Assembly (NCBI GenBank): GCA_017470585.1
Contig: JAFUYI010000006.1
Span: 1-63,173, forward strand
Source: Alphaproteobacteria bacterium
GTDB taxonomy: Bacteria > Pseudomonadota > Alphaproteobacteria > RF32 > CAG-239
Direction of reading: 5' to 3'
Length of the DNA: 63,173 bases
Shown here: one piece after another, positions 1 to 63,173 of the stretch
Layout of the letters: each line of letters starts with the position of its first letter
Position numbering within the stretch: position 1 is the first letter of the stretch
The notes under the pieces: model-generated
Databases searched by the model: none
Seen by the model: the letters and a program-made list of their open reading frames with translations, nothing else
What the model was told of the DNA's origin: nothing
Made by a program: the position numbers and the translations under genes

Positions 1-32
1 CTAGGAGAAAGAGGGGCGTTCCTACTCTCCTT

Positions 33-72
33 GTCACCCCTCCGAGCGAGGAACGAGCGAGGTCATGGGGTC
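33..72. repeat. Dispersed repeat element (GTCACCCCTCCGAGCGAGGAACGAGCGAGGTCATGGGGTC)
   Basis: A near-identical copy lies in inverted orientation at 29412-29451. Both copies sit upstream of a paralog-cassette promoter (L1 and L6). Confidence 0.7.
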
Positions 73-173
73 TCCCGATTATAAGGGGCGGTGCCTAAAT
101 TTCAGGAGATGCCTTGACCACCTGTGGAGGCATGACGGCGGGAGGAAGGCAAAAAAGGGAAGAAGCAAAAAGT

Positions 174-185
174 GCAAAATTTTGC
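174..185. promoter_or_regulatory. Perfect 12-bp palindrome GCAAAATTTTGC abutting the -35 box of the L1 promoter (possible operator)
   Basis: The same palindrome occupies the same position relative to the -35 box of the L6 promoter (29248-29259). Confidence 0.35.
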
Positions 186-450
186 TTTACATTACTGATT
201 TTATATGCTAGGATAAAATTGAAGTGAGCGAAAAGCCGCTTTGAGGTGTCAGAACCTCTTTCGTGGTGTCTAAAAGACATAAAATGCTTCTGGCTTGATT
301 ATGGTCGGAAGGCAGGGGAATATAAAGAATACCTTGCACTATTCCACGAAATAGTTCTGAACTTCCGACCACCTCGCGGCTCTAAAAAGCCAACAGGTGG
401 TTTCTTTTTTAAGTTAACAAAAAAAAGAAATTATAAAGGGAGTATAGAAA
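186..450 (+). promoter_or_regulatory. Promoter and structured 5' leader, copy L1 (controls paralog P1)
   Basis: -35 TTTACA 186-191, 17-nt spacer, -10 TAGGAT 209-214. The leader starts at about 221 (GAAGTGAGCG). P1 arms are GAGGTG-TCAGAAC-CCTC-TTTCGTGG (243-266) and CCACGAAA-TA-GTTCTGA (344-360). Other helices: P2 TGTCT/AGACA, P3 CTTCTGGC/GTCGGAAG, P4 GCAGG/CTTGC. These are followed by ACTTCCGACC-ACCTC, the terminator at 368-410 and the SD AAGGGAG. Confidence 0.75.
368..410 (+). terminator. Intrinsic terminator (attenuator) inside leader L1
   Basis: Stem ACCACCT/AGGTGGT with an inner GGCT/AGCC pairing, followed by TTTCTTTTTT. It lies 40 nt upstream of the ATG. Confidence 0.7.
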
Positions 451-921
451 ATGAATAAATATATTTTAATGCTTGGCGTTGCCGGAGTTGCTCTTGGCAG
501 TTACGCAGCCTACGCGGGCAACTCGGCAACAATGACCGTAACAGCCACAATAGCTCATGATGTGAGCATAAATATTGAACAGGAAATGAGTTGCGGAACA
601 ATTACCATTGACCCATCGCAAAGTTTCGGTGCATGGGATTGCAATGATGATGATACTTCAAAAAACGGAGGTGTGATGTCCAAGAGCGGGACAAGAATTG
701 GCAAGATAAGTGCCAATGTTCCGGCAAGCGGATGGCATTGGACCATTACCAAAACCGATTTTCCTTCTCCGTTGGCATGGGCTGGAGGAACACCTGTAAT
801 ATCTGAGAATATTCAATCTGACGGTTTTTATCATGTATATGCATACATTGAATATAACACTGTTCCAGCAGAAGACGATTACAGTGCCACAATAACCGTA
901 AGTTATACTCCAGAAAGTTAG
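451..921 (+). CDS. Secreted DUF4402-like (pilin-like) protein, paralog P1
   Basis: 156 aa. Signal peptide MNKYILMLGVAGVALGSYAAYA, then GNSATMTVTATIAHDVS. C-terminus ..ATITVSYTPES. Belongs to the subtype without the CGGL motif. Confidence 0.9.
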   Translation: MNKYILMLGVAGVALGSYAAYAGNSATMTVTATIAHDVSINIEQEMSCGTITIDPSQSFGAWDCNDDDTSKNGGVMSKSGTRIGKISANVPASGWHWTITKTDFPSPLAWAGGTPVISENIQSDGFYHVYAYIEYNTVPAEDDYSATITVSYTPES

Positions 922-12398: not shown

Positions 12399-12425
12399 TA
12401 TTTTTTGTTCTCCCATTCATCAAGA
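12398..12425. repeat. 28-bp direct repeat, copy 1 (TTATTTTTTGTTCTCCCATTCATCAAGA)
   Basis: Identical to 13177-13204. A degenerate third copy starts near 12565. This copy contains the sufC start codon and RBS. Confidence 0.9.
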
Positions 12426-12456
12426 TTCCGCTTGTCATCACGTCCCCTAATCTGTC

Positions 12457-12787
12457 ATGCCGAACTTGTTTCGGCATCTCTTTTAGATCCTGAAACAAGT
12501 TCAGGATGACATCCGATGTCTCTTTTATAAGATCCTGAAACAAGTTCAGTATGACACTTGTGTTATTTCTTGTTCTCCAACTTCTACTCATCAAGACTCC
12601 GCTTGTCATCAACTTCCCGATTGTCATCACGTCCCCTAATCTGTCATGCCGAACTTGTTTCGGCATCTCTTTTAGATCCTGAAACAAGTTCAGGATGACA
12701 TTCGATGTCTCTTTTATAAGATCCTGAAACAAGTTCAGGATGACATTCGGTGCCTTTTTTGTAAGATCCTTTAATGGAGTTCAGGAT
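12457..12787. repeat. Array of REP-like 21-bp palindromic units in two ~170-200 bp tandem blocks
   Basis: ATGCCGAACTTGTTTCGGCAT at 12457-12477 and 12646-12666. ATCCTGAAACAAGTTCAGGAT at 12487-12507, 12532-12552, 12676-12696 and 12721-12741. A degenerate unit at 12766-12787. Confidence 0.85.
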
Positions 12788-14988: not shown

Positions 14989-15242
14989 TTTACATTGCCG
15001 TTTTTTTATGTTAACTTGAAAAGCGAAGTGAGTGAAAAACCGCTTTGAGGTGTGGAAACCTCTTCTGGGACGTTTAGAAAAACGCAAAACTTCTGGCTGA
15101 TTATGGCCGGAAGGTCGGGGAATATAAAGAATACCCGGCACTGTCTCCCAGAGCAGTTTCCAACTTCCGACCACCTCGCGGGTTTTAATGCCCAGAAGGT
15201 GGTTTTTCTTTATAACGTTAATAAAAGAAGGAAGTTTATAAA
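14989..15242 (+). promoter_or_regulatory. Promoter and structured 5' leader, copy L2 (controls P2)
   Basis: -35 TTTACA 14989-14994, 17 nt, -10 TAACTT 15012-15017. P1 arms TGGAAAC (15053-59) and TCTGGGA (15064-70) pair with TCCCAGA (15146-52) and GTTTCCA (15156-62). P4 is GTCGG/CCGGC. Confidence 0.75.
15170..15210 (+). terminator. Intrinsic terminator (attenuator) inside leader L2
   Basis: ACCACCT/AGGTGGT stem followed by TTTTTCTTT. Confidence 0.7.
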
Positions 15243-17679: not shown

Positions 17680-17821
17680 TTATCTCTCCTTATGCAGATT
17701 TTTTTAATATATGGGATTTTTAAAACGCAATCGCAAGTGCGTTTTGTAATTTTTTACTTGATTTTATCTTAAATATGGTTAGATTGAGGGCTGAATAATA
17801 ATCTTATAGAGGAGATAAACC

Positions 17822-18061
17822 ATGGTTTCTGTCGTTAATGACAACTGCATTAAATGCAAATCTTGCGCTGACGTATGTCCGGTTGACGCTTTCCACGAAG
17901 GCGAAACCCAATTGGTAGTTGATCCGGATACCTGCATCAGCTGCGGCGTTTGCATTTCCGAATGCCCGCAAGAAGCAATCAGCCCCGAAGAAGAGGCCGA
18001 TCCGCATTGGGTTGCGTTTAATGCCGAGAATGCCAAAAAATGGCCGAACGCTAACGAATAA
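17822..18061 (+). CDS. 2x[4Fe-4S] ferredoxin
   Basis: 79 aa. [12 protein letters not shown] and [12 protein letters not shown] motifs. Confidence 0.93.
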
Positions 18062-18065
18062 AAAC

Positions 18066-18091
18066 AAGGGAGGATATTTCCTCCCTTTTTT
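18066..18091 (+). terminator. Intrinsic terminator of the ferredoxin gene
   Basis: AAGGGAGG-ATATTT-CCTCCCTT followed by TTTTG. Confidence 0.8.
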
Positions 18092-18130
18092 GTTATACTA
18101 AAAAAATAAATATTTTTTATAACTTTTTGC

Positions 18131-18402
18131 TTGATTGACAATAAAACCTATGATATAGTTACTTTGAAACAGGGAAATCCTGTTTTGGGGTGTGATGACC
18201 TCGCAATTGACGTTTATAAAGAAAAACGTAAAAATTCTTCCTGCTATAAAATGGCCGGAAGGTCGGGAAATAGGGGATAACCTAATACTCGGCACTGGTT
18301 CAATTGTCAGTCATCAACTTCCGACCACCTCTAGGGTTTATGCCTCAAAAGGTGGTTTTCTTTTAATGTTAACAAAAAAGAATTATAAAGGAAGTAAGAA
18401 AG
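18131..18402 (+). promoter_or_regulatory. Promoter and structured 5' leader, copy L3 (controls P3)
   Basis: -35 TTGATT 18131-36, 17 nt, -10 TATAGT 18154-59. P0 is AAACAGG/CCTGTTT. P1 arms TGATGAC..CAATTGA pair with TCAATTG..GTCATCA. P2 is ACGTTT/AAACGT. Confidence 0.75.
18324..18364 (+). terminator. Intrinsic terminator (attenuator) inside leader L3
   Basis: ACCACCT/AGGTGGT stem followed by TTTTCTTTT. The loop sequence is identical to that of L7. Confidence 0.7.
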
Positions 18403-21400: not shown

Positions 21401-21670
21401 ATTCTTTACTTCCTTTATAATTTTCTTTTTCTGTTAACACTAAAAAGAAAACCACCTTTGGGCGTAAAACCCTGAAGGCGGTTGGAAGCTCAAAACTACT
21501 AACTGATGTAGTGCAAGGTATTCTTTATATTCCCCTGCCTTCCAACCATAAAGATCGGATATATACCGATTTACGTTTCGGTACAAACGTCAGTTACGAG
21601 GTTTTGAGACCTCAAAGCGGTTTTTCACTCGCTTCAAAGTCAATATAACATAAGTTTTATTGATTGGCAA
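21401..21670 (-). promoter_or_regulatory. Promoter and structured 5' leader, copy L5 (controls P4)
   Basis: On the minus strand: -35 TTGCCA (21665-70), 17 nt, -10 TATATT (21642-47). The leader starts at about 21635 (GAAGCGAGTG). P1 arms CTCAAAAC..TAACTGA pair with TCAGTTA..GTTTTGAG. There is an extra hairpin ATCGG/CCGAT. Confidence 0.75.
21442..21482 (-). terminator. Intrinsic terminator (attenuator) inside leader L5
   Basis: RNA ACCGCCT/AGGTGGT (one G-U pair) followed by TTTTCTTTTT. Confidence 0.65.
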
Positions 21671-26834: not shown

Positions 26835-27100
26835 TTGATTTAAGCAAAAAACTGTTTTAGTATGAATCTTGAAGTGAAGAATTTTCACTTTGAGGTGTGA
26901 CAGCCCCTATCAAAGCGTTTTTAAGAAAAACGTAAAAATTCTTCCTGCTATAATGGTTGGAAGGCAAAGGAATAAGAGATACCTCAAATACTTTGCACTG
27001 TTCTTTGATACAGCTGTCAACTTCCAGCCACCTCGCGGAGTACATCTCCAACGGGTGGTTTCTTTTTATAACCGCAAAGAAACCATAAAAGGAAGTTTAG
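26835..27100 (+). promoter_or_regulatory. Promoter and structured 5' leader, copy L4 (controls divergent paralog P5)
   Basis: -35 TTGATT 26835-40, 17 nt, -10 TAGTAT 26858-63. P0 is AAGTGAA/TTCACTT. P1 arms TGACAGC..TATCAAAG pair with CTTTGATA..GCTGTCA. P4 is GCAAA/TTTGC with a distal GAG/CTC hairpin. Confidence 0.75.
27028..27067 (+). terminator. Intrinsic terminator (attenuator) inside leader L4
   Basis: CCACC/GGTGG stem with an inner GGAG/CTCC pairing, followed by TTTCTTTTT. Confidence 0.65.
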
Positions 27101-28996: not shown

Positions 28997-29247
28997 CTAA
29001 ACTTCCTTATCTATTGTTAACAAAGAAAATCACCCCGACAAATAGACGAGGTGATTGGAAGTTTCAGACTGTCATGTATAACAGTGTATGGTATTTGGTT
29101 GAAACCTTATTTCCATACCTTCCAACCATAATACGGTCAGAAGTAGTTTTATGTCTTTGCGGACAATACATGAGAGGTCTGAAAACCTCAAAGTGACCTT
29201 TCATTCACTTCATTTTCTACCCTAGCATAAAAAATCTTTTATGTAAA
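28997..29247 (-). promoter_or_regulatory. Promoter and structured 5' leader, copy L6 (controls P6)
   Basis: On the minus strand: -35 TTTACA (29242-47), 17 nt, -10 TAGGGT (29219-24). The leader starts at about 29211. P1 arms TTTCAGAC..TCATGTAT pair with ATACATGA..GTCTGAAA. P4 is GTATGG/CCATAC with a distal GGTT/AACC hairpin. The palindrome GCAAAATTTTGC lies at 29248-29259. Confidence 0.75.
29022..29055 (-). terminator. Intrinsic terminator (attenuator) inside leader L6
   Basis: RNA ATCACC/GGTGAT stem followed by TTTTCTTTG. Confidence 0.6.
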
Positions 29248-29333
29248 GCAAAATTTTGCACTTTTTGCTTTTCCTTTTTTTACTTCTCCTCCCGAGGTCA
29301 AGCCACCAATTGTCATCAATCCCGCCCCTTGTC

Positions 29334-29384
29334 GTCCTGAACTTGTTTCAGGACCTCTAACCTAGATGCTGAAACAAGTTCAGC
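29334..29384. repeat. Two REP-like palindromic units (same family as in the suf insertion)
   Basis: GTCCTGAACTTGTTTCAGGAC at 29334-29354 and GCTGAAACAAGTTCAGC at 29368-29384. Confidence 0.8.
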
Positions 29385-29411
29385 AAGACAAGCGGGGACT
29401 TGATGTCAAAA

Positions 29412-29451
29412 GACCCAATGACCTCGTTCGTTCCTCGCTCGGAGGGGTGAC
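29412..29451. repeat. Inverted copy of the dispersed element at 33-72
   Basis: GACCCAATGACCTCGTTCGTTCCTCGCTCGGAGGGGTGAC is the reverse complement of 33-72 with 2 mismatches. Confidence 0.75.
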
Positions 29452-29545
29452 GAGGAGGGAAAAATCTCAAAAACAGATGCTGAAACTTTGACATTGGGGT
29501 GATTATCGGGTTAAATTCGATGATGATATAGGCTGCTTTGGCAAG

Positions 29546-33195: not shown

Positions 33196-33444
33196 CTAAA
33201 CTTCCTTATCTATTGTTAACAAAGAAAACCACCTTTTGAGGCATAAACCCTAGAGGTGGTCGGAAGCTCGAAACTGTGATGTAAAACAGTGCCGGGTATT
33301 CTTTATATTTCCCGACCTTCCAACCATAGCACGGTTAGAAACAATTTTATGTCTTGCCTGACATTACATCAGAGGCTTCGAGACCTCAAAGCGGTTTTTC
33401 ACTCACTTCAAAAAAAATATACCATAAGTTCTATGCAAAATCAA
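33196..33444 (-). promoter_or_regulatory. Promoter and structured 5' leader, copy L7 (controls P7)
   Basis: On the minus strand: -35 TTGATT (33439-44), 17 nt, -10 TATATT (33416-21). The leader starts at about 33409. P1 arms CTCGAAGC..TGATGTAA pair with TTACATCA..GTTTCGAG. The SD and spacer are identical to those of L6. Confidence 0.75.
33221..33260 (-). terminator. Intrinsic terminator (attenuator) inside leader L7
   Basis: RNA ACCACCT/AGGTGGT stem followed by TTTTCTTTG. Confidence 0.7.
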
Positions 33445-38111: not shown

Positions 38112-38381
38112 ATTAAAACTTCCTTTCTTTAGTTTATTATAACTTTAATAAAAGAAACCACCTCTTGGAGTATTTCTCCGCGAGGTGGTCGGAAGTTCAC
38201 AACTATCAGTTATAATAGTCCTGCGTATTTGTGAAATCACTTATTTCGCAAGCTTCCGACCATAAGCCGGATACAAACCAAATAACGTTTTGGTAAACGA
38301 TAGCTGAGAGGTTGTGACACCTCAAAGCAGAATTTTCCCTGCTTCGATTTTTAAGCTAGCATAAAAAATCTTTTATGTCAA
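38112..38381 (-). promoter_or_regulatory. Promoter and structured 5' leader, copy L8 (controls P8)
   Basis: On the minus strand: -35 TTGACA (38376-81), 17 nt, -10 TAGCTT (38353-58). P0 is AAGCAG/CTGCTT. P1 arms TCACAAC..TCAGCTA pair with TAACTGA..GTTGTGA (one mismatch). P4 is CTTGCG/CGCAGG with a distal GTGA/TCAC hairpin. Confidence 0.72.
38151..38189 (-). terminator. Intrinsic terminator (attenuator) inside leader L8
   Basis: RNA ACCACCT/AGGTGGT stem with an inner GGAG/CTCC pairing, followed by TTTCTTTT. Confidence 0.7.
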
Positions 38382-42901: not shown

Positions 42902-43160
42902 TACAAAAACTTCCTTTTTTTATTAAAGTTATAATAAAGAAACCACCTTTTGGCTCTTGAAAGCCGCGAGGTGGCTGGAAGCTGACAACTGTTGTAAGGA
43001 ACAGTGTCGGGTATTCTTTATATTCCCCGACCTTCCAACCATAGAACGGTTAGAAGCAATTTTCTGTCTTGTTCGGACACCTTACAAGAGGCTGTCAGAC
43101 CTCAAAACGAAATTTTCTCCGTTTCGGAATTAAACTAGCACATTTTTAAACTTAAATCAA
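42902..43160 (-). promoter_or_regulatory. Promoter and structured 5' leader, copy L9 (controls P9)
   Basis: On the minus strand: -35 TTGATT (43155-60), 17 nt, -10 TAGTTT (43132-37). P0 is AAACG/CGTTT. P1 arms CTGACAGC..TTGTAAGG pair with CCTTACAA..GTTGTCAG (one G-U). P4 is GTCGG/CCGAC. Confidence 0.75.
42934..42975 (-). terminator. Intrinsic terminator (attenuator) inside leader L9
   Basis: RNA CCACCT/AGGTGG stem with an inner GGCT/AGCC pairing, followed by TTTCTTTATT. Confidence 0.65.
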
Positions 43161-58241: not shown

Positions 58242-59072
58242 ATGATAAAAAGACTTTTAATTACGTTGTTGTTGGTTAGTGCTTTTGCGACTCGTACGAG
58301 TGCCAATATCGGCGTTTTCCCGCAATCGGTAGATTTTGATGACAGTTCCAAAAAACGTTCTCAAACATTAAATGTTGTAAATCACTCGGATCACCCGCAG
58401 ACATACCGTGTCAGCGTTATCCAATATACTCAAGATGAAGACGGCAAATATACGGAAGTTGAAACAGCTCCGAATGCTGCCGCCAAATATCTGGTTTTTT
58501 CTCCGAAGCAATTCACGATTCGCCCCGGTAAAATTCAGGCTGTTCGCATTGCTCGTAAATCTCTCGGACAATTAAAAGACGGCGAATATGTATCGCACAT
58601 TAAAATCAGTGAAGTTGAAATGCCCAAAGTAAAGACTGCGGAAGATGAAAAGAAAGCCGCCGAGGCTAAAAAAGCCGCTGAAGAGGGCAATAATGAGGAA
58701 GCTGAAGATGAGGAAGAAACCGAAAGACAGCTTTCATTCTCTTTGAAGACGCTGTTTGCCATGAGTATTCCGGTTACTATCTATAAAGGTAATAATTTGG
58801 AACAAAAGACCTCTATTGAGAGTGTCAAGGTGAACGGCGATAAGGTTGATGTTGTATTAAAACGTCAAGGACAGATTTCATCGCGTGTAAACGTTGTTGT
58901 TTTGGACACTAAAGGCAATGAAATCGGCCGCAACGGTCCGTTGCGTATTTATACACCGAACGGAAAACGTAATGTATCCGTTCAACTGGACAAAGAAGCA
59001 AAAACTAAACCGGCTATTATAAGACTTGAAAATGCAGTTACAAAGAAAGAAATCCTGCAGAAACAAATCTAA
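58242..59072 (+). CDS. PapD-like periplasmic pilus chaperone
   Basis: Signal peptide, then IGVFPQSVDFDDSSKKRSQTLNVVNHSDHPQTYRVSV..FSPKQFTIRPGKIQAVRI.. A charged insert lies before the candidate G1 strand LSFSLKTLFAMSIPVTIY. Confidence 0.7.
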   Translation: MIKRLLITLLLVSAFATRTSANIGVFPQSVDFDDSSKKRSQTLNVVNHSDHPQTYRVSVIQYTQDEDGKYTEVETAPNAAAKYLVFSPKQFTIRPGKIQAVRIARKSLGQLKDGEYVSHIKISEVEMPKVKTAEDEKKAAEAKKAAEEGNNEEAEDEEETERQLSFSLKTLFAMSIPVTIYKGNNLEQKTSIESVKVNGDKVDVVLKRQGQISSRVNVVVLDTKGNEIGRNGPLRIYTPNGKRNVSVQLDKEAKTKPAIIRLENAVTKKEILQKQI

Positions 59073-62000
59073 ACTTCTGTTTAGACTGTTATTGCTGCTC
59101 TCTGCTCTGCCGTTGGTTGCACACGCGGAAGATGATACTGCCGTGCAGCCGCAGCAGGCGGAACCCGAGGCTGCGCCTCAAGAGATTGACAACTATGTTC
59201 CCGAAGATGAGGAGTTGATTTTTGAAACTTCGACTCAAGGTTACATGGAGGAAGATTATCTCTATGCGTACAACCAAAAAGGAAAGGTCTTTTTGCCTTT
59301 TTCACAGGTGTCGGCTTTTCTGGGTATTATGTATGATCAACAAAATAAGGTGCTTACCGCTTGGTACAGCAATGAACCTGCGCATAAGTACATCATTGAT
59401 CTCAATACCTACACCGCCAGTGATGACGGTAAGCCGGTCGCTTTTTCGGCATCGGACTATAAGTTCATTGAAGGAACAATGTTCTTCGATGTTAATTTTA
59501 TTTCGACATTGTTCGGATTTGAGACCAAGTACGACTTCTATGATATGAAGATTTCCTTTGACCGTGAACGCGAATTTCCGACCATGGTTAAACGTAATGC
59601 CGATGCTCGCCGTCAGAAGAGCCGAGGCGTTCAGTTCGCCGACCGCAGTTATAAGGACTACGAAAAAGATGAACGTTGGATCGGTTCTCCGGTGATTGAC
59701 TTGCAAGTCGGTAAAAACTGGTCGCATAACAAAGGCGGAAAAACCACCAATAGTGATAACTATGCGGTTAACATTTCAACCATTGCCGCCGGTGTCGATG
59801 TCAACAGCTATATTTCCGGATCTTCATCCGACGGACATAAACCTCGTTTCCGTTTTAACGGCGGACGTACGTTGCTTGATGACGGTGACACACCGCTGAA
59901 TTTGCGTCAATATAAGTTCGGTGATATTACCGGTATCGGCAGTTCTTACTTTACGGATGCCAGCTACGGACGCGGTGCCAGCTTCTCGAGCTTTAAAAAC
60001 TTGGTTTTGAGTGCGGATAAGACAATTGACATTGTCGGTCCCTTGGCGGAAGGATGGGAAGTTGAGCTGTATTGGAACGGGCAGTTGTTAGGTTATCGTC
60101 AAAACAGCATTAACGGCGAATATAACTTTGCTAAAATCCCTGTTTCCTACGGGTTGAACACATTTAAACTTGTTTTCTACGGTCCGTACGGTGAAGTCCG
60201 CACCGAAGAAAAACGTTACTACTCCGGTACTTCTCCGGTTCACAAGGGCGAGTTCGGCTATAATGTTGCCGCTTATCAGCCTTGGCGTTATTTGGTTGAA
60301 GAAAATGAGCCCAATACCTATGACGGCAAAGATATTCCTGTTTTAGACAGTACATTCTATTACGGTGCCACCGATGACTTGACGGTTATGGGCGGATATA
60401 CGCAAACTCCGGATGCCGAAACCAAAGAAGATACCCAGCATTTCGGTATGGCAGGTTTCCAATACGCCATCAAAGGTAGTTCGGTTCAATATAACTTGGA
60501 AACTAACCTTGATACCGAAAAGAGCGGACACCATGTTGAGTGGCAGGGTGATGTTTACATCGGAACGGTTTACGCTTCGTATGATAAATACAATTCTGTT
60601 CATTCGCCTGTATCATATTCCGGTAACGAGTACTTAAAAGACAAGACCGAGTTCCGTTTCAGCGGAAGCACTCCGTGGGCTTTGCCTTATTATGTAAGTT
60701 ACCGCACCGGAAAGAAAGAAAGCGGTGATGAAACTTACAAAGACATCGTTGCTCGTGTTTCCAAGAGCTTGGAGGGATGGTATCTCTCCTTGGAGGACAC
60801 TTATGATGCTCTGAATTACCGCAATGTTATCAGTCCGCGTGTTTATAATCACTGGGGCAACTTCTCTTGGGAAAACTCTCTTGAATATCGTTCCAACCCG
60901 GATCCGGATTTCACGGATTTTACTTCCAAGCTGACATGGCGTGAAGACCGCTATACTTATTATACAGCGCAATATCGCCGTGATTTGGAAGAAGATATGG
61001 ATTATTATTCGCTTTCCGGAGCGAGAATCTTCCCGTTCGGCGGTCTGTCTTTGACATTGCAGATGGATAAAAAGAAAAACTTCTCCAGTTATTTAACTTA
61101 TAATATCAGCTTTGCCAAAGAGCCTGGTCATGCCAATGTTATCACTTCGGCTAACTCCAAGTTGAGCGGCACGGGTTCAATCTATGTAACCTTGCACGAT
61201 GATGAGGGCAATCCTTTAGAGGGTGTCGGTTTGACAGCCAGCAACTTGGTTAAGGAAGTTTACACCGATGAAAACGGTGCGGCGTTCTTGACCGACTTGA
61301 GTGCTAATGAAAAGACCATTTTGACGGTTGATATGGAAACTTTGGAGGATGTATCCTTAAAGCCTGATGCCGAAGTTAAGAAATTGGTTTTGCGCCCCGG
61401 CACACTGCGTGAGATTGATATTTCATTCAGTCACTATGCGTCGGTTGAAGGACAAATTGCTAACCCGCACGGCAAACGCCTGTATGGTTACAAAGTTGCC
61501 GCTGTTGATGCGGAAGGCAACGAAGTTACTTCTAACTTCTCGGATTTGGAAGGTTACTTCATTGTCAGTGATGTTCCTTACGGTACTTATGACTTTATTG
61601 TTTCGAAGGACGGTAAGACCTTGGCGGAAATCAAGGATGTTAAGGTTGATGACATTGAAATTGCGCTTGATGATGTTTACACCAAAGAGGCAATGCGTCC
61701 CGGCAGCGGTATAGAAGCAGGAGCTTTGTTCGAGTCGGATGAAAGCGAGAACTACCTCACTACGACCAACCCGGATGAGGAAGAGGAAAATTCTGCGGCA
61801 GATGAAGATAATGCCAAAGAAGATAAGAGTACCTCTAACGACAGCTTCTATGATTATTGGCTCGGACACAATCAATGGAATATGGCGGAAAATAGAGACA
61901 CCGCTCCCGTAATCGGACAGACCCCGTATGTTGGACAATGCCTGCGCGAACCGAAAATGGTATCACAGCAAATCGGCATTACTCCGATCAACTTTGCCGA

Positions 62001-62376
62001 GGTTTACCAAAACAACGGCAAATGGCTCAAGTCTGCATCACGCAGTGCACCGGCAAAATGGATCGACGCACAGCGTTTGACACCGGCACGTTGGATAAAT
62101 GCTTATCGCTATACTCCGGCTCTGTGGATACACGCCGATCGCGAAACATCGGCTCGTTGGATAAATGCTTACCGTTATACTCCGGCGAGATGGATCAACG
62201 CTTTCCGTTACGCTCCGGCAGCATGGATTCATGCTTATCGCTATGCACCGGCAACATGGATTCAGGCGTACCGCTACGCACCTGCGGCATGGATACACGC
62301 CTACCGCTTTGCGCCGGCTCGTTGGATAAATGCGGATGCCGAGACCAAATCGGTTAAACGTCCGACCAAGGCATAA
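59032..62376 (+). CDS. Large outer-membrane usher-like protein with CarboxypepD_reg-like domains and a C-terminal 11-aa repeat array
   Basis: 1114 aa from the ATG at 59032. Signal peptide LLFRLLLLLSALPLVAHA. The Tyr/Gly-rich central part looks like a beta-barrel. Two segments resemble carboxypeptidase-regulatory-like domains (GSIYVTLHDDEGNPLEGV.., GQIANPHGKRLYGYKV..). The position after the chaperone gene supports an usher role. Confidence 0.6.
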   Translation: MQLQRKKSCRNKSKLLFRLLLLLSALPLVAHAEDDTAVQPQQAEPEAAPQEIDNYVPEDEELIFETSTQGYMEEDYLYAYNQKGKVFLPFSQVSAFLGIMYDQQNKVLTAWYSNEPAHKYIIDLNTYTASDDGKPVAFSASDYKFIEGTMFFDVNFISTLFGFETKYDFYDMKISFDREREFPTMVKRNADARRQKSRGVQFADRSYKDYEKDERWIGSPVIDLQVGKNWSHNKGGKTTNSDNYAVNISTIAAGVDVNSYISGSSSDGHKPRFRFNGGRTLLDDGDTPLNLRQYKFGDITGIGSSYFTDASYGRGASFSSFKNLVLSADKTIDIVGPLAEGWEVELYWNGQLLGYRQNSINGEYNFAKIPVSYGLNTFKLVFYGPYGEVRTEEKRYYSGTSPVHKGEFGYNVAAYQPWRYLVEENEPNTYDGKDIPVLDSTFYYGATDDLTVMGGYTQTPDAETKEDTQHFGMAGFQYAIKGSSVQYNLETNLDTEKSGHHVEWQGDVYIGTVYASYDKYNSVHSPVSYSGNEYLKDKTEFRFSGSTPWALPYYVSYRTGKKESGDETYKDIVARVSKSLEGWYLSLEDTYDALNYRNVISPRVYNHWGNFSWENSLEYRSNPDPDFTDFTSKLTWREDRYTYYTAQYRRDLEEDMDYYSLSGARIFPFGGLSLTLQMDKKKNFSSYLTYNISFAKEPGHANVITSANSKLSGTGSIYVTLHDDEGNPLEGVGLTASNLVKEVYTDENGAAFLTDLSANEKTILTVDMETLEDVSLKPDAEVKKLVLRPGTLREIDISFSHYASVEGQIANPHGKRLYGYKVAAVDAEGNEVTSNFSDLEGYFIVSDVPYGTYDFIVSKDGKTLAEIKDVKVDDIEIALDDVYTKEAMRPGSGIEAGALFESDESENYLTTTNPDEEEENSAADEDNAKEDKSTSNDSFYDYWLGHNQWNMAENRDTAPVIGQTPYVGQCLREPKMVSQQIGITPINFAEVYQNNGKWLKSASRSAPAKWIDAQRLTPARWINAYRYTPALWIHADRETSARWINAYRYTPARWINAFRYAPAAWIHAYRYAPATWIQAYRYAPAAWIHAYRFAPARWINADAETKSVKRPTKA
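62053..62349 (+). repeat. Nine in-frame 33-bp tandem repeats (consensus A-x-W-I-x-A-Y-R-Y-x-P)
   Basis: AKWIDAQRLTP ARWINAYRYTP ALWIHADRETS ARWINAYRYTP ARWINAFRYAP AAWIHAYRYAP ATWIQAYRYAP AAWIHAYRFAP ARWINADAETK. Confidence 0.95.
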
Positions 62377-63000: not shown

Positions 63001-63173
63001 ATTAAAAACTTCCTTCTTTTATTAACGTCATAAAGAAAAACCACCTTTTGGGACGTATCCCGCGAGGTGGTCGGAAGCTCTAAACTGACACTTGAATCAG
63101 TGCAAAGTATTTGAGGTATCTCTTATTCCTTTGCCTTCCGGCCATTATAGCAGGAAGAATTTTTACGTTTTTC
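63001..63173 (-). promoter_or_regulatory. Structured 5' leader, copy L10 (its 5' part is cut off by the window edge)
   Basis: Contains P2 (..AAACGT), P3, P4 (GCAAA/TTTGC, identical to L4), 3' P1 arms ..TTCAAGTG..GTTTAGAG, then CTTCCGACCACCTC and the terminator. Confidence 0.7.
63032..63071 (-). terminator. Intrinsic terminator (attenuator) inside leader L10
   Basis: RNA ACCACCT/AGGTGGT stem followed by TTTTTCTTT. Confidence 0.7.

Follow-up and report, generated by a model that had tools for sequence, protein, structure and literature searches.

The stretch of DNA analysed here, 63,173 nucleotides (nt) of an Alphaproteobacteria bacterium (GenBank assembly GCA_017470585.1, contig JAFUYI010000006.1; hereafter the window), raises the question of why a 5' leader that recurs upstream of a family of secreted-protein genes carries in every copy two short blocks of its own particular sequence, each with its complement further downstream in the same copy. 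In what follows, these complementary arms are found to form a genuine long-range helix, P1, which is selected for pairing. To the view that the leader is an undescribed, very high-copy, riboswitch-like transcription attenuator, in which P1 closes the sensor domain and the variation of P1 is compensatory drift, we assign a probability of roughly 0.6.

Using nhmmer together with a covariance model, we found 10 leader copies in the window, nine of them complete and one cut by the window end, with four on the forward strand and six on the reverse strand. The complete unit is a 5' leader of about 190 nt, whose core in copy 1 occupies positions 243-375 of the window, and the order of promoter, leader and start codon on the strand of the gene is the same in all ten copies. 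Copy 1 reads GAGGTG-TCAGAAC-CTC-TTTCGTGG ... CCACGAAA-TA-GTTCTGA-ACTTCC-GAC-CACCTC, in which the two 5' arms are called var1 and var2 and their downstream partners var1' and var2' (Table 1). A first-pass annotation of this DNA had described the two variable blocks and their reverse-order complements in each copy, and this description is confirmed, all nine arm pairs that it listed being correct. Some of its details needed adjustment: the conserved CCTC between the blocks holds in general but is CCCC in the copy at 26891, the compensation in the nine complete copies stands except for one C-A mismatch in var2 of the copy at 38181, and the spacing between the arms, given as about 90 nt, is 77-90 nt when taken between the var2 blocks.

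For the comparison among copies, 51 nhmmer matches gave 45 unique complete leaders from the window and from loci L001-L019 of rumen and gut Alphaproteobacteria assemblies, where contigs L009-L019 are the surroundings of seven proteins obtained in a search with the downstream protein family. Alignment A3 was made with MAFFT from 36 leaders, and alignment A5 is a model-based alignment of 49 rows covering all clades. A DNA-pattern scan of reference genomes has shown that the element is present in metagenome-assembled genomes (MAGs) of rumen and rabbit-gut Alphaproteobacteria. Contig L020, which comes from the same rumen sample as the window, is 99.99% identical to it and was uninformative for a strain-level comparison.

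When the 20 nt after GAGGT were folded against the 20 nt before CTTCC in each of the 45 copies, the cognate duplexes had a mean energy of -16.9 kcal/mol, compared with -5.0 kcal/mol for the 1980 non-cognate combinations and -4.8 kcal/mol for shuffled 3' arms. Chance complementarity of the arms is excluded. The search for genomic copies with non-complementary arms, to which the first-pass annotation had given the weight of a refutation, found the cognate arm to be the best partner in 42 of the 45 copies, but it also brought to light two mismatched copies, in L002 and L010, which are treated below. On A3, each of the 11 freely variable pairs shows changes on both sides in 8-23 of the 36 sequences and nearly none on one side only; 98% of the cells at these pairs are paired, a proportion that falls to 35-48% when the 3' partner is slid by 1-3 columns, and the observed covariation was reached by 0 of 500 shuffles. 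The same picture for P1 is obtained on A5; overall, the double-sided changes at eleven base pairs of P1 occur in 8-29 sequences each, and across the whole leader both-sided changes were seen at 30 of 54 pairs on A3 and at 32 of 39 on A5.

The folds agree with the alignments. The architecture of P1, namely a helix of 7-8 base pairs (bp), a 3x2 internal loop and a helix of 7-9 bp, is common to all copies, and GAGGU, var1 and var2 pair with var2', var1' and ACUUC both in the RNAalifold consensus of A3 and in the minimum free energy (MFE) fold of copy 1, which has an energy of -71.5 kcal/mol and a fold z of -5.5. Both variable helices are present in the MFE folds of 42 of the 45 leaders and the terminator in those of 41. 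P1 closes a junction of three elements, i.e. hairpin B, the hairpin formed by segments g'' and g, and hairpin h, and the terminator follows immediately after it. Even in the distant relatives (L001, L003, L042 and L017:3894) the arms are complementary, with yet other sequences. The earlier proposal of selection for helix formation is accordingly borne out by the cognate energies, the covariation and both kinds of fold, and the compensated arms are the strongest single evidence that the repeated leader is a folded, functional RNA.

The strand on which this constraint acts can be read from the exceptional pairs. Since G-U is tolerated and A-C is not (15 against 1 at the variable pairs), the constraint on P1 acts on the RNA of the gene's strand. 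The arms also form an inverted repeat in DNA, and some of them end in AAC or begin with GTT in a manner superficially like an attC core, so that one may think of a recombination site or cruciform instead of an RNA helix; however, the strand-specific count just given and the constant location of the element between promoter and terminator, in the orientation of the gene, make this explanation hardly credible. As a particular case, an integron attC-like site was rejected, because the arms do not fit the GTTRRRY/RYYYAAC core and the pairing is not at the DNA level. Another reading accepts the RNA helix and supposes that RNase III cuts the coaxial duplex of GAGGU, var1 and var2, about 20 bp in length, and so would process or destabilise the leader irrespective of its sequence. 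Sequence-independent recognition of a helix of 5+7+8 bp would fit the free covariation, but these stacked helices are interrupted by a 1-nt bulge and the 3x2 loop, and the terminator together with the alternative pairings described in the next paragraph already explains every conserved segment. We regard an RNase III site as improbable as the reason for P1, while noting that it is not exclusive of an attenuator.

The conserved segments adjoining the arms have more than one partner. Segment g covaries with both g'' upstream and g' downstream; the pairing of g with g' is 99% paired, with the column pair 105-176 occurring as UA24/CG8/UG4, and g' overlaps the 5' strand of the terminator by 4 nt. 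In distant copies the changes in g are compensated in both partners, as in GGCAGG (L001), GGUAGG (L003) and GGGCGGA (L042). Similarly, GAGGU can pair with ACCUC to form hairpin A, whose loop is var1 and which is the alternative to the GAGGU:ACUUC base of P1. A divergent relative at L017:3894-4080, in which GGAGC/GCUCU/ACUCC and CCCGGGA/UCCCGG replace the usual switch segments, has both hairpin A and the base of P1 compensated and its own arms complementary. Another divergent relative, at L042:6221-6341 on the reverse strand, lacks hairpin B and carries GGGCGGA/UCCGCCC, and its own arms are again complementary; the HtpG of its host is 53% identical. Hairpin i (ACURN/NYAGU), which has var2' as its loop, contains two covarying pairs, and the alignment columns 160/239 pair better within hairpin i than with var2. 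Among the remaining elements, the 5' hairpin P0 shows both-sided changes in six of seven pairs, hairpin h is 100% paired on A3 with five covarying pairs of the eight in its extended stem and near-invariant loop bases, the terminator has a covarying pair at 178-209 (A3), and both promoter hexamer regions are conserved between the leader copies (alignment A1). In copy 1 the terminator is followed by a ribosome-binding site (RBS) and then by the ATG at 451.

A second copy-specific compensated pairing was observed in a subclass of the leaders, between the loop of hairpin B and the linker just downstream of it. Examples are TACCGA/TCGGTA, ACCAAA/TTTGGT, ATACTAAA/TTTAGTAT and others, at window 21564-21583 (-) and 38277-38294 (-), L017:13863-14002, L011:9797-9941, L018:2767-2910, L018:18119-18259 and L016:1165-1309. 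This pairing is probably an H-type pseudoknot.

On the basis of these pairings we propose that short segments rich in purines or in pyrimidines form a network in which each of them has a choice of two mutually exclusive partners: for GAGGU these would be ACCUC in hairpin A or ACUUC at the base of P1, and for g (GGUYGGAAG) the upstream g'' (CUUCYRRCC) or the downstream g' (CUUCCRACC). In the presumed OFF state, the full P1 and the g'':g hairpin would form and the terminator would follow; in the presumed ON state, g:g' would form, hairpins A and i would be closed and the arms unpaired, and the base of the terminator stem would be lost, permitting read-through. When g:g' was enforced in folding, the structure lay 9-15 kcal/mol above the MFE and the terminator was gone from the fold. 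The balance between the two states would presumably be tipped by a putative ligand or protein. Because var1 and var2' lie in hairpin loops and var2 and var1' in single strands, this arrangement suggests that P1 may be nucleated by loop-strand contacts. The variable part of P1, having a single partner and presumably no sequence-specific contact, would be constrained to pair only; the arms of old paralogues would then have drifted by compensatory change to about the divergence of synonymous sites, while the segments with two partners would be frozen and parts of the leader further homogenised between copies, so that the 'barcode' of each copy may mainly be a by-product.

The levels of divergence along the leader bear directly on this point. 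The mean pairwise identity is 0.34-0.38 in the variable arms, which are the most variable part of the leader, 0.52-0.59 in loops and apical regions, 0.60-0.74 in the covarying stems (P0, hairpin h and hairpin B), and 0.88-0.97 in GAGGU, CUC, g, g', ACCUC and RAAUA/AAUAC. The earlier statement that the arms are far more diverged than the rest of the leader therefore holds (0.34-0.38 against 0.52-0.97 elsewhere). Having one partner only, the variable part of P1 would be free to drift, and the set of frozen segments coincides with that of the segments having two partners. The identity of the arms, 0.36 for a random expectation of 0.28, can be compared with that of four-fold synonymous sites in the downstream genes, which for a codon-usage expectation of about 0.3 amounts to 0.39 over the gene body and to 0.47 over the first 42 codons. 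Arm identity has no correlation with the protein identity of the downstream genes (r = 0.00).

Several copies depart from these rules and may tell how the leaders exchange sequence. In L002:5486-5625 the 5' arms (CTGAAAAC / TCTAATATG) are not complementary to the 3' arms (TATAACGAAG / TTCTGA), and the 3' half and the downstream pilin gene resemble the copy at L006:2057-2196; this copy looks like a recombinant of two leaders. The contigs that carry the copy at L010:291-432 and its allele at L009:9806-9947 stem from different samples; over 1265 nt they differ in a single tract of about 70 nt. This tract runs through the 3' arms, the loop of the terminator and the U run, leaving the L010 copy with a mismatched P1, and was either copied from a paralogue by a short gene conversion or produced as a mosaic in assembly. 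The L002 and L010 copies look like products of gene conversion or recombination affecting one arm, events that selection would act against. Furthermore, four pairs of copies share var2 exactly and have similar interiors (4-19% differences), with outer parts that differ by 11-41% in most of the pairs, the near-identical pair L009_9781/L009_15334 being the exception. In these pairs var1 differs by 2-3 adjacent base pairs, all of which are compensated. Because the leaders of one such pair are about 97% identical and its genes 70% identical in nucleotides, the leader is conserved or homogenised, with the arms carrying the residual divergence.

It is conceivable from such cases that the arms are diverse as an escape from gene conversion: the interior and the flanks would be homogenised between copies, conversion tracts covering one arm only would break P1 and be purged, and the arms would remain as old islands. 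The P1-destroying tract of L010, the mismatched arms of L002, the pairs that share var2 and interior but differ more in their outer parts, the much greater similarity of the leader than of the gene body, and the higher identity at four-fold sites over the first 42 codons (0.47, against 0.39 beyond them) are all in keeping with this. Purifying selection on the alternative pairing, however, also explains the conserved segments, the tract in L010 may have arisen as a mosaic in metagenome assembly, and conversion of whole leaders should spread barcodes too, which has been seen only once. As the main cause of the diversity, we hold escape from gene conversion to be unlikely.

We attach about the same low probability to insulation between copies, in which the arms would have been selected to differ among the more than 70 (on the order of a hundred) co-expressed copies per cell. 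In the unfolded or ON state var2 would be single-stranded and var1 and var2' would lie in hairpin loops, which would suit kissing contacts, identical arms would let transcripts capture each other's arm and disturb termination, and one-arm conversions such as those of L010 and L002 would be instantly mis-regulated hybrids. This explanation finds agreement in the facts that among 35 copies of the two main genomes no pair agrees in both arms, that non-cognate duplexes are as weak as shuffled ones, that the arms vary more than the leader loops and still differ between copies with near-identical interiors, and that var1 and var2' coincide with the loops of the covarying hairpins A and i. Random drift by itself, however, yields orthogonal 15-nt barcodes, and the additional marks of selected difference were sought and not seen: over-dispersion of barcodes was absent in the window genome, where the nearest-neighbour distance is 6.00 against 5.97 in column-shuffled sets, and in the second genome the barcodes are slightly closer than random (4.12 against 4.73); the non-cognate arm energy equals the shuffled-arm energy, indicating no extra repulsion between copies; the divergence is at the level of synonymous sites; and the same barcode is present in two copies of one roe-deer MAG (L004:1637-1776 and L006:2057-2196), in addition to the four pairs with an identical var2. 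On these grounds the selection for sequence diversity suggested by the first-pass annotation is unsupported. Should insulation prove correct, it would reveal a means by which a cell carrying one RNA device in many copies prevents cross-talk between them, and would provide a first natural case of riboswitch-like paralogues insulated from one another by sequence addresses.

The barcodes may also be considered as addresses in trans, each being read by a matching small RNA or guide that would switch the members of the family separately, e.g. for antigenic variation. Every copy does have a distinct 15-nt tag, and downstream there are families usually associated with variable surface structures, namely pilin-like proteins and an Opa-like outer-membrane protein, but each arm has its complement within the leader and is paired with it in the stable fold. 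Across 294 kb of the genomes concerned, copies or complements of barcodes lying outside leaders occurred at chance level, with about 9 non-redundant co-occurrences of var2 and var1 against about 10 expected, and no arm was found to be complementary, in a cognate-specific way, to the coding or upstream region of its own copy. The address for a trans-acting factor, another suggestion made at first sight of the sequence, thus receives no backing from these searches and is very improbable.

The diversity of P1 is best explained by drift combined with constraint, to which concerted evolution of the flanks may have contributed; selection for diversity need not be invoked, and no signature of it was detected, although it retains a low probability, since random 15-nt barcodes are orthogonal to begin with. 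Several observations nevertheless weigh against the attenuator with compensatory drift as formulated above. No loop of the leader is as diverged as the arms (identity 0.52-0.59 against 0.34-0.38), which would mean that the arms change faster than the leader background, though only if the loops are truly unconstrained. One would normally expect base-paired positions to change more slowly than synonymous ones, and here the two are equally diverged. The compensated changes of 2-3 bp in var1 between copies sharing var2 look abrupt for point mutation. As to the switch itself, covariation cannot separate alternation from coexistence in a pseudoknot, either for P1 and g:g' or for P1 and hairpin i. 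In transcripts truncated before the 3' strand of the terminator, GAGGUG pairs with CACCUC in 35 of the 45 copies; because this pairing is uncompensated in L017:3894, we keep it only as a possible antiterminator, and the exact antiterminator, for which g:g' is our candidate, is uncertain.

No match at gathering scores was found with Rfam 15 in the whole window, including c-di-GMP-I/II, ykkC and other ligand-defined classes, for which E-value mode gave nothing beyond sub-threshold noise, and no description of the leader was found in the literature. The features that recommend it as an attenuator are its position between promoter and RBS, a covarying multi-helix domain, a terminator after this domain, and a covarying helix that overlaps the terminator. 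As in known riboswitch and attenuator leaders such as the multi-copy T-box and c-di-GMP families, a multi-helix domain with a freely covarying long-range P1 is located in the 5' untranslated region; riboswitch leaders also share with it conserved junction and loop bases, a terminator set against an alternative helix, and many copies before functionally related genes. Unlike in those families, the leader is unusually abundant, with 10 copies within 63 kb, P1 is bipartite with arms coinciding with the loops of two alternative hairpins, and the switch consists of a three-way competition among GGAAG-like and CUUCC-like segments. The four-segment attenuators of trp and his resemble it in that the choice between mutually exclusive pairings of short, similar segments governs the formation of the terminator hairpin; they differ in that our leader has no leader peptide and its decision domain is a structured RNA of about 130 nt. 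Rfam matches to His and Leu leaders in the window are sub-threshold noise and are located elsewhere.

Complementary sequences of 6-8 nt in hairpin loops or single strands are likewise known from the antisense systems ColE1 RNA I/RNA II and R1 CopA/CopT. In such kissing systems, display in loops can nucleate fast and specific pairing, and the specificity comes from sequences that differ between related replicons. In contrast to them, both partners here are on one transcript and no trans partner was found, and nucleation by kissing would be suggested by the coincidence of arms and loops.

A structural resemblance was also noted to sRNA-Xcc1 (RF02221), an integron-cassette small RNA upstream of symE in Xanthomonas (PMC2996969; bioRxiv 10.1101/2025.06.18.660453). 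The g...g' domain gave full-length but sub-threshold matches at window 303-378, 15105-15180 and 33250-33325 (-), three copies whose scores are, from highest to lowest, 32.9, 31.1 and 28.1 bits against a gathering score of 53, the other window copies scoring lower. The 3' half of the leader can be threaded on this model, with two hairpins enclosed by a 9-bp helix (GGNCGGNNG/CNNCCGNCC) and CACC after it; such a fold, however, covers one of the two leader conformations and omits the 5' arms. In L001-L006 and L008, which contain nine leader copies, no sRNA-Xcc1 match was obtained at E<=5. With scores far below gathering, no match in other clades and no symE context, membership in this family was rejected and the likeness is one of structure only.

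The arms and the two covarying alternatives of g together define an undescribed riboswitch-like attenuator, present in very many copies in uncultured Alphaproteobacteria of the rumen and gut. The leader is an orphan switch candidate, whose putative effector would probably coordinate the cell surface of these gut bacteria. The natural variants of P1 constitute a ready-made series of compensatory mutations. The coordinates of the leader elements are collected in Table 1.

Table 1. Elements of leader copy 1 and cores of the other leader copies in the window
Feature	Position	Strand	Remarks
Sigma-70-like promoter, copy 1	186..214	+	TTTACA, 17-nt spacer, TAGGAT with TG extension; promoter scan
5' hairpin P0 (GAAGTGAGCGAAAAGCCGCTTT)	221..242	+	covarying helix; in MFE fold
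GAGGU(G) switch segment	243..248	+	three possible partners: ACCUC 254-258, ACUUC 361-365, CACCUC 370-375
var1, 5' arm TCAGAAC	249..255	+	partner 354-360
Conserved CUC spacer between var1 and var2	256..258	+	5' side of P1 internal loop; identity 0.96
var2, 5' arm TTTCGTGG	259..266	+	partner 344-351
Hairpin B (TGTCTAAAAGACA)	267..279	+	two covarying pairs, CG/UA
g'' (CUUCUGGCU)	287..295	+	upstream partner of g; MFE fold; covariation with g
g (GGUCGGAAG)	303..311	+	partner g'' (287-295) or g' (362-370); both covary with g
Hairpin h	312..337	+	covarying stem; conserved RAAUA / AAUAC internal-loop bases
Hairpin i (ACUAUU..AAUAGU)	338..355	+	loop is var2'; two covarying stem pairs
var2', 3' arm CCACGAAA	344..351	+	partner var2
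var1', 3' arm GTTCTGA	354..360	+	partner var1
ACUUCCGACC	361..370	+	first 5 nt (ACUUC) pair with GAGGU as base of P1; 362-370 is g'
ACTTCC	361..366	+	copy 1
Intrinsic terminator	367..410	+	GACCACCUC..GAGGUGGUU stem, inner GGCU/AGCC stem, U run; MFE fold
CACCTC	370..375	+	copy 1
Downstream gene of copy 1	451..921	+	156-aa signal-peptide protein of expanded paralogous family
Leader core, copy 2 (GAGG..CACCTC)	15046..15178	+	126 bits
Leader core, copy 3	18186..18332	+	132 bits
Leader core, copy 4	26891..27035	+	133 bits
Leader core, copy 5	21474..21614	-	114 bits
Leader core, copy 6	29047..29190	-	146 bits
Leader core, copy 7	33252..33388	-	137 bits
Leader core, copy 8	38181..38324	-	one C-A mismatch in var2
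Leader core, copy 9	42967..43104	-	142 bits
Leader core, copy 10	63063..63173	-	5' part missing at window end; 81 bits

Each leader in the window precedes a gene for one paralogous secreted protein of 156-184 amino acids (aa), and these units are scattered among housekeeping genes such as htpG, the genes for RNase E and a DNA methylase, gyrA and an S1 protein gene. The expansion of the downstream family is evident from 76 different IJ689_ locus tags among the best 120 protein matches, all of which are annotated as hypothetical. The family protein of the window has no Pfam domain; its AlphaFold model, with a predicted local distance difference test (pLDDT) score of 87.6, is a beta-sandwich with a disordered, conserved N-terminal segment. 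A fold search gave weak matches to the chaperone-usher pilins Caf1, Saf and Csu (E>=0.07), and because of this weakness the assignment to a pilin family is tentative. The proteins downstream of the leaders in the roe-deer MAG are type IVb pilin-like, with PilS and Bundlin Pfam domains above threshold and a sub-threshold N_methyl motif; in L001 the protein is an Opa-like outer-membrane beta-barrel and in L003 a cysteine-rich, secreted protein, and in L042 the N-terminus resembles, by eye, an XRE-type helix-turn-helix regulator. Most targets of the leader are predicted cell-surface proteins, and many of their genes are monocistronic.

The surroundings of htpG permit a comparison with relatives, through 36 metagenome loci in which HtpG is 75-86% identical in most and 39-53% identical in seven. 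The open reading frame (ORF) adjoining htpG (window 17779-18141) is syntenic and 73-88% identical in L021-L041 and L044, several of which are from human gut. In these 36 loci we found no leader or family gene, except for one distant leader in L042. Because the two cassettes flanking htpG in the window are absent from the loci of relatives, the leader-gene cassettes are lineage-specific insertions or expansions.

Several minor observations concern the neighbourhood of the leaders. Directly 5' of the promoter, in some leader copies only, there is a conserved element of about 160 nt that is richer in G+C (...GTCACCCCTCCGAGCGAGGAACGAGCGAGGTCATGGGGTCTCC...) and has no Rfam match; it is located at window 25-185 and 29248-29457 (-), L009:9577-9749, L017:16200-16371 and L019:9602-9737. 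A gene with a Fic domain follows a member of the secreted family at three loci of the second genome (L016:10719-11831, L017:10706-11749 and L018:8621-9706). Within an ORF of 1116 aa at window 59026-62376, at least eight tandem 33-nt repeats, encoding 11-aa units of approximately PAxWIxAxRYx, occupy positions 62047-62333. Repeats resembling repetitive extragenic palindromic (REP) sequences, with the palindrome AGATCCTGAAACAAGTTCAGGATGAC, are found at window 12410-12762 and 29364-29401, as two tandem units of about 157 nt at 12417-12762 and a single copy near 29364.

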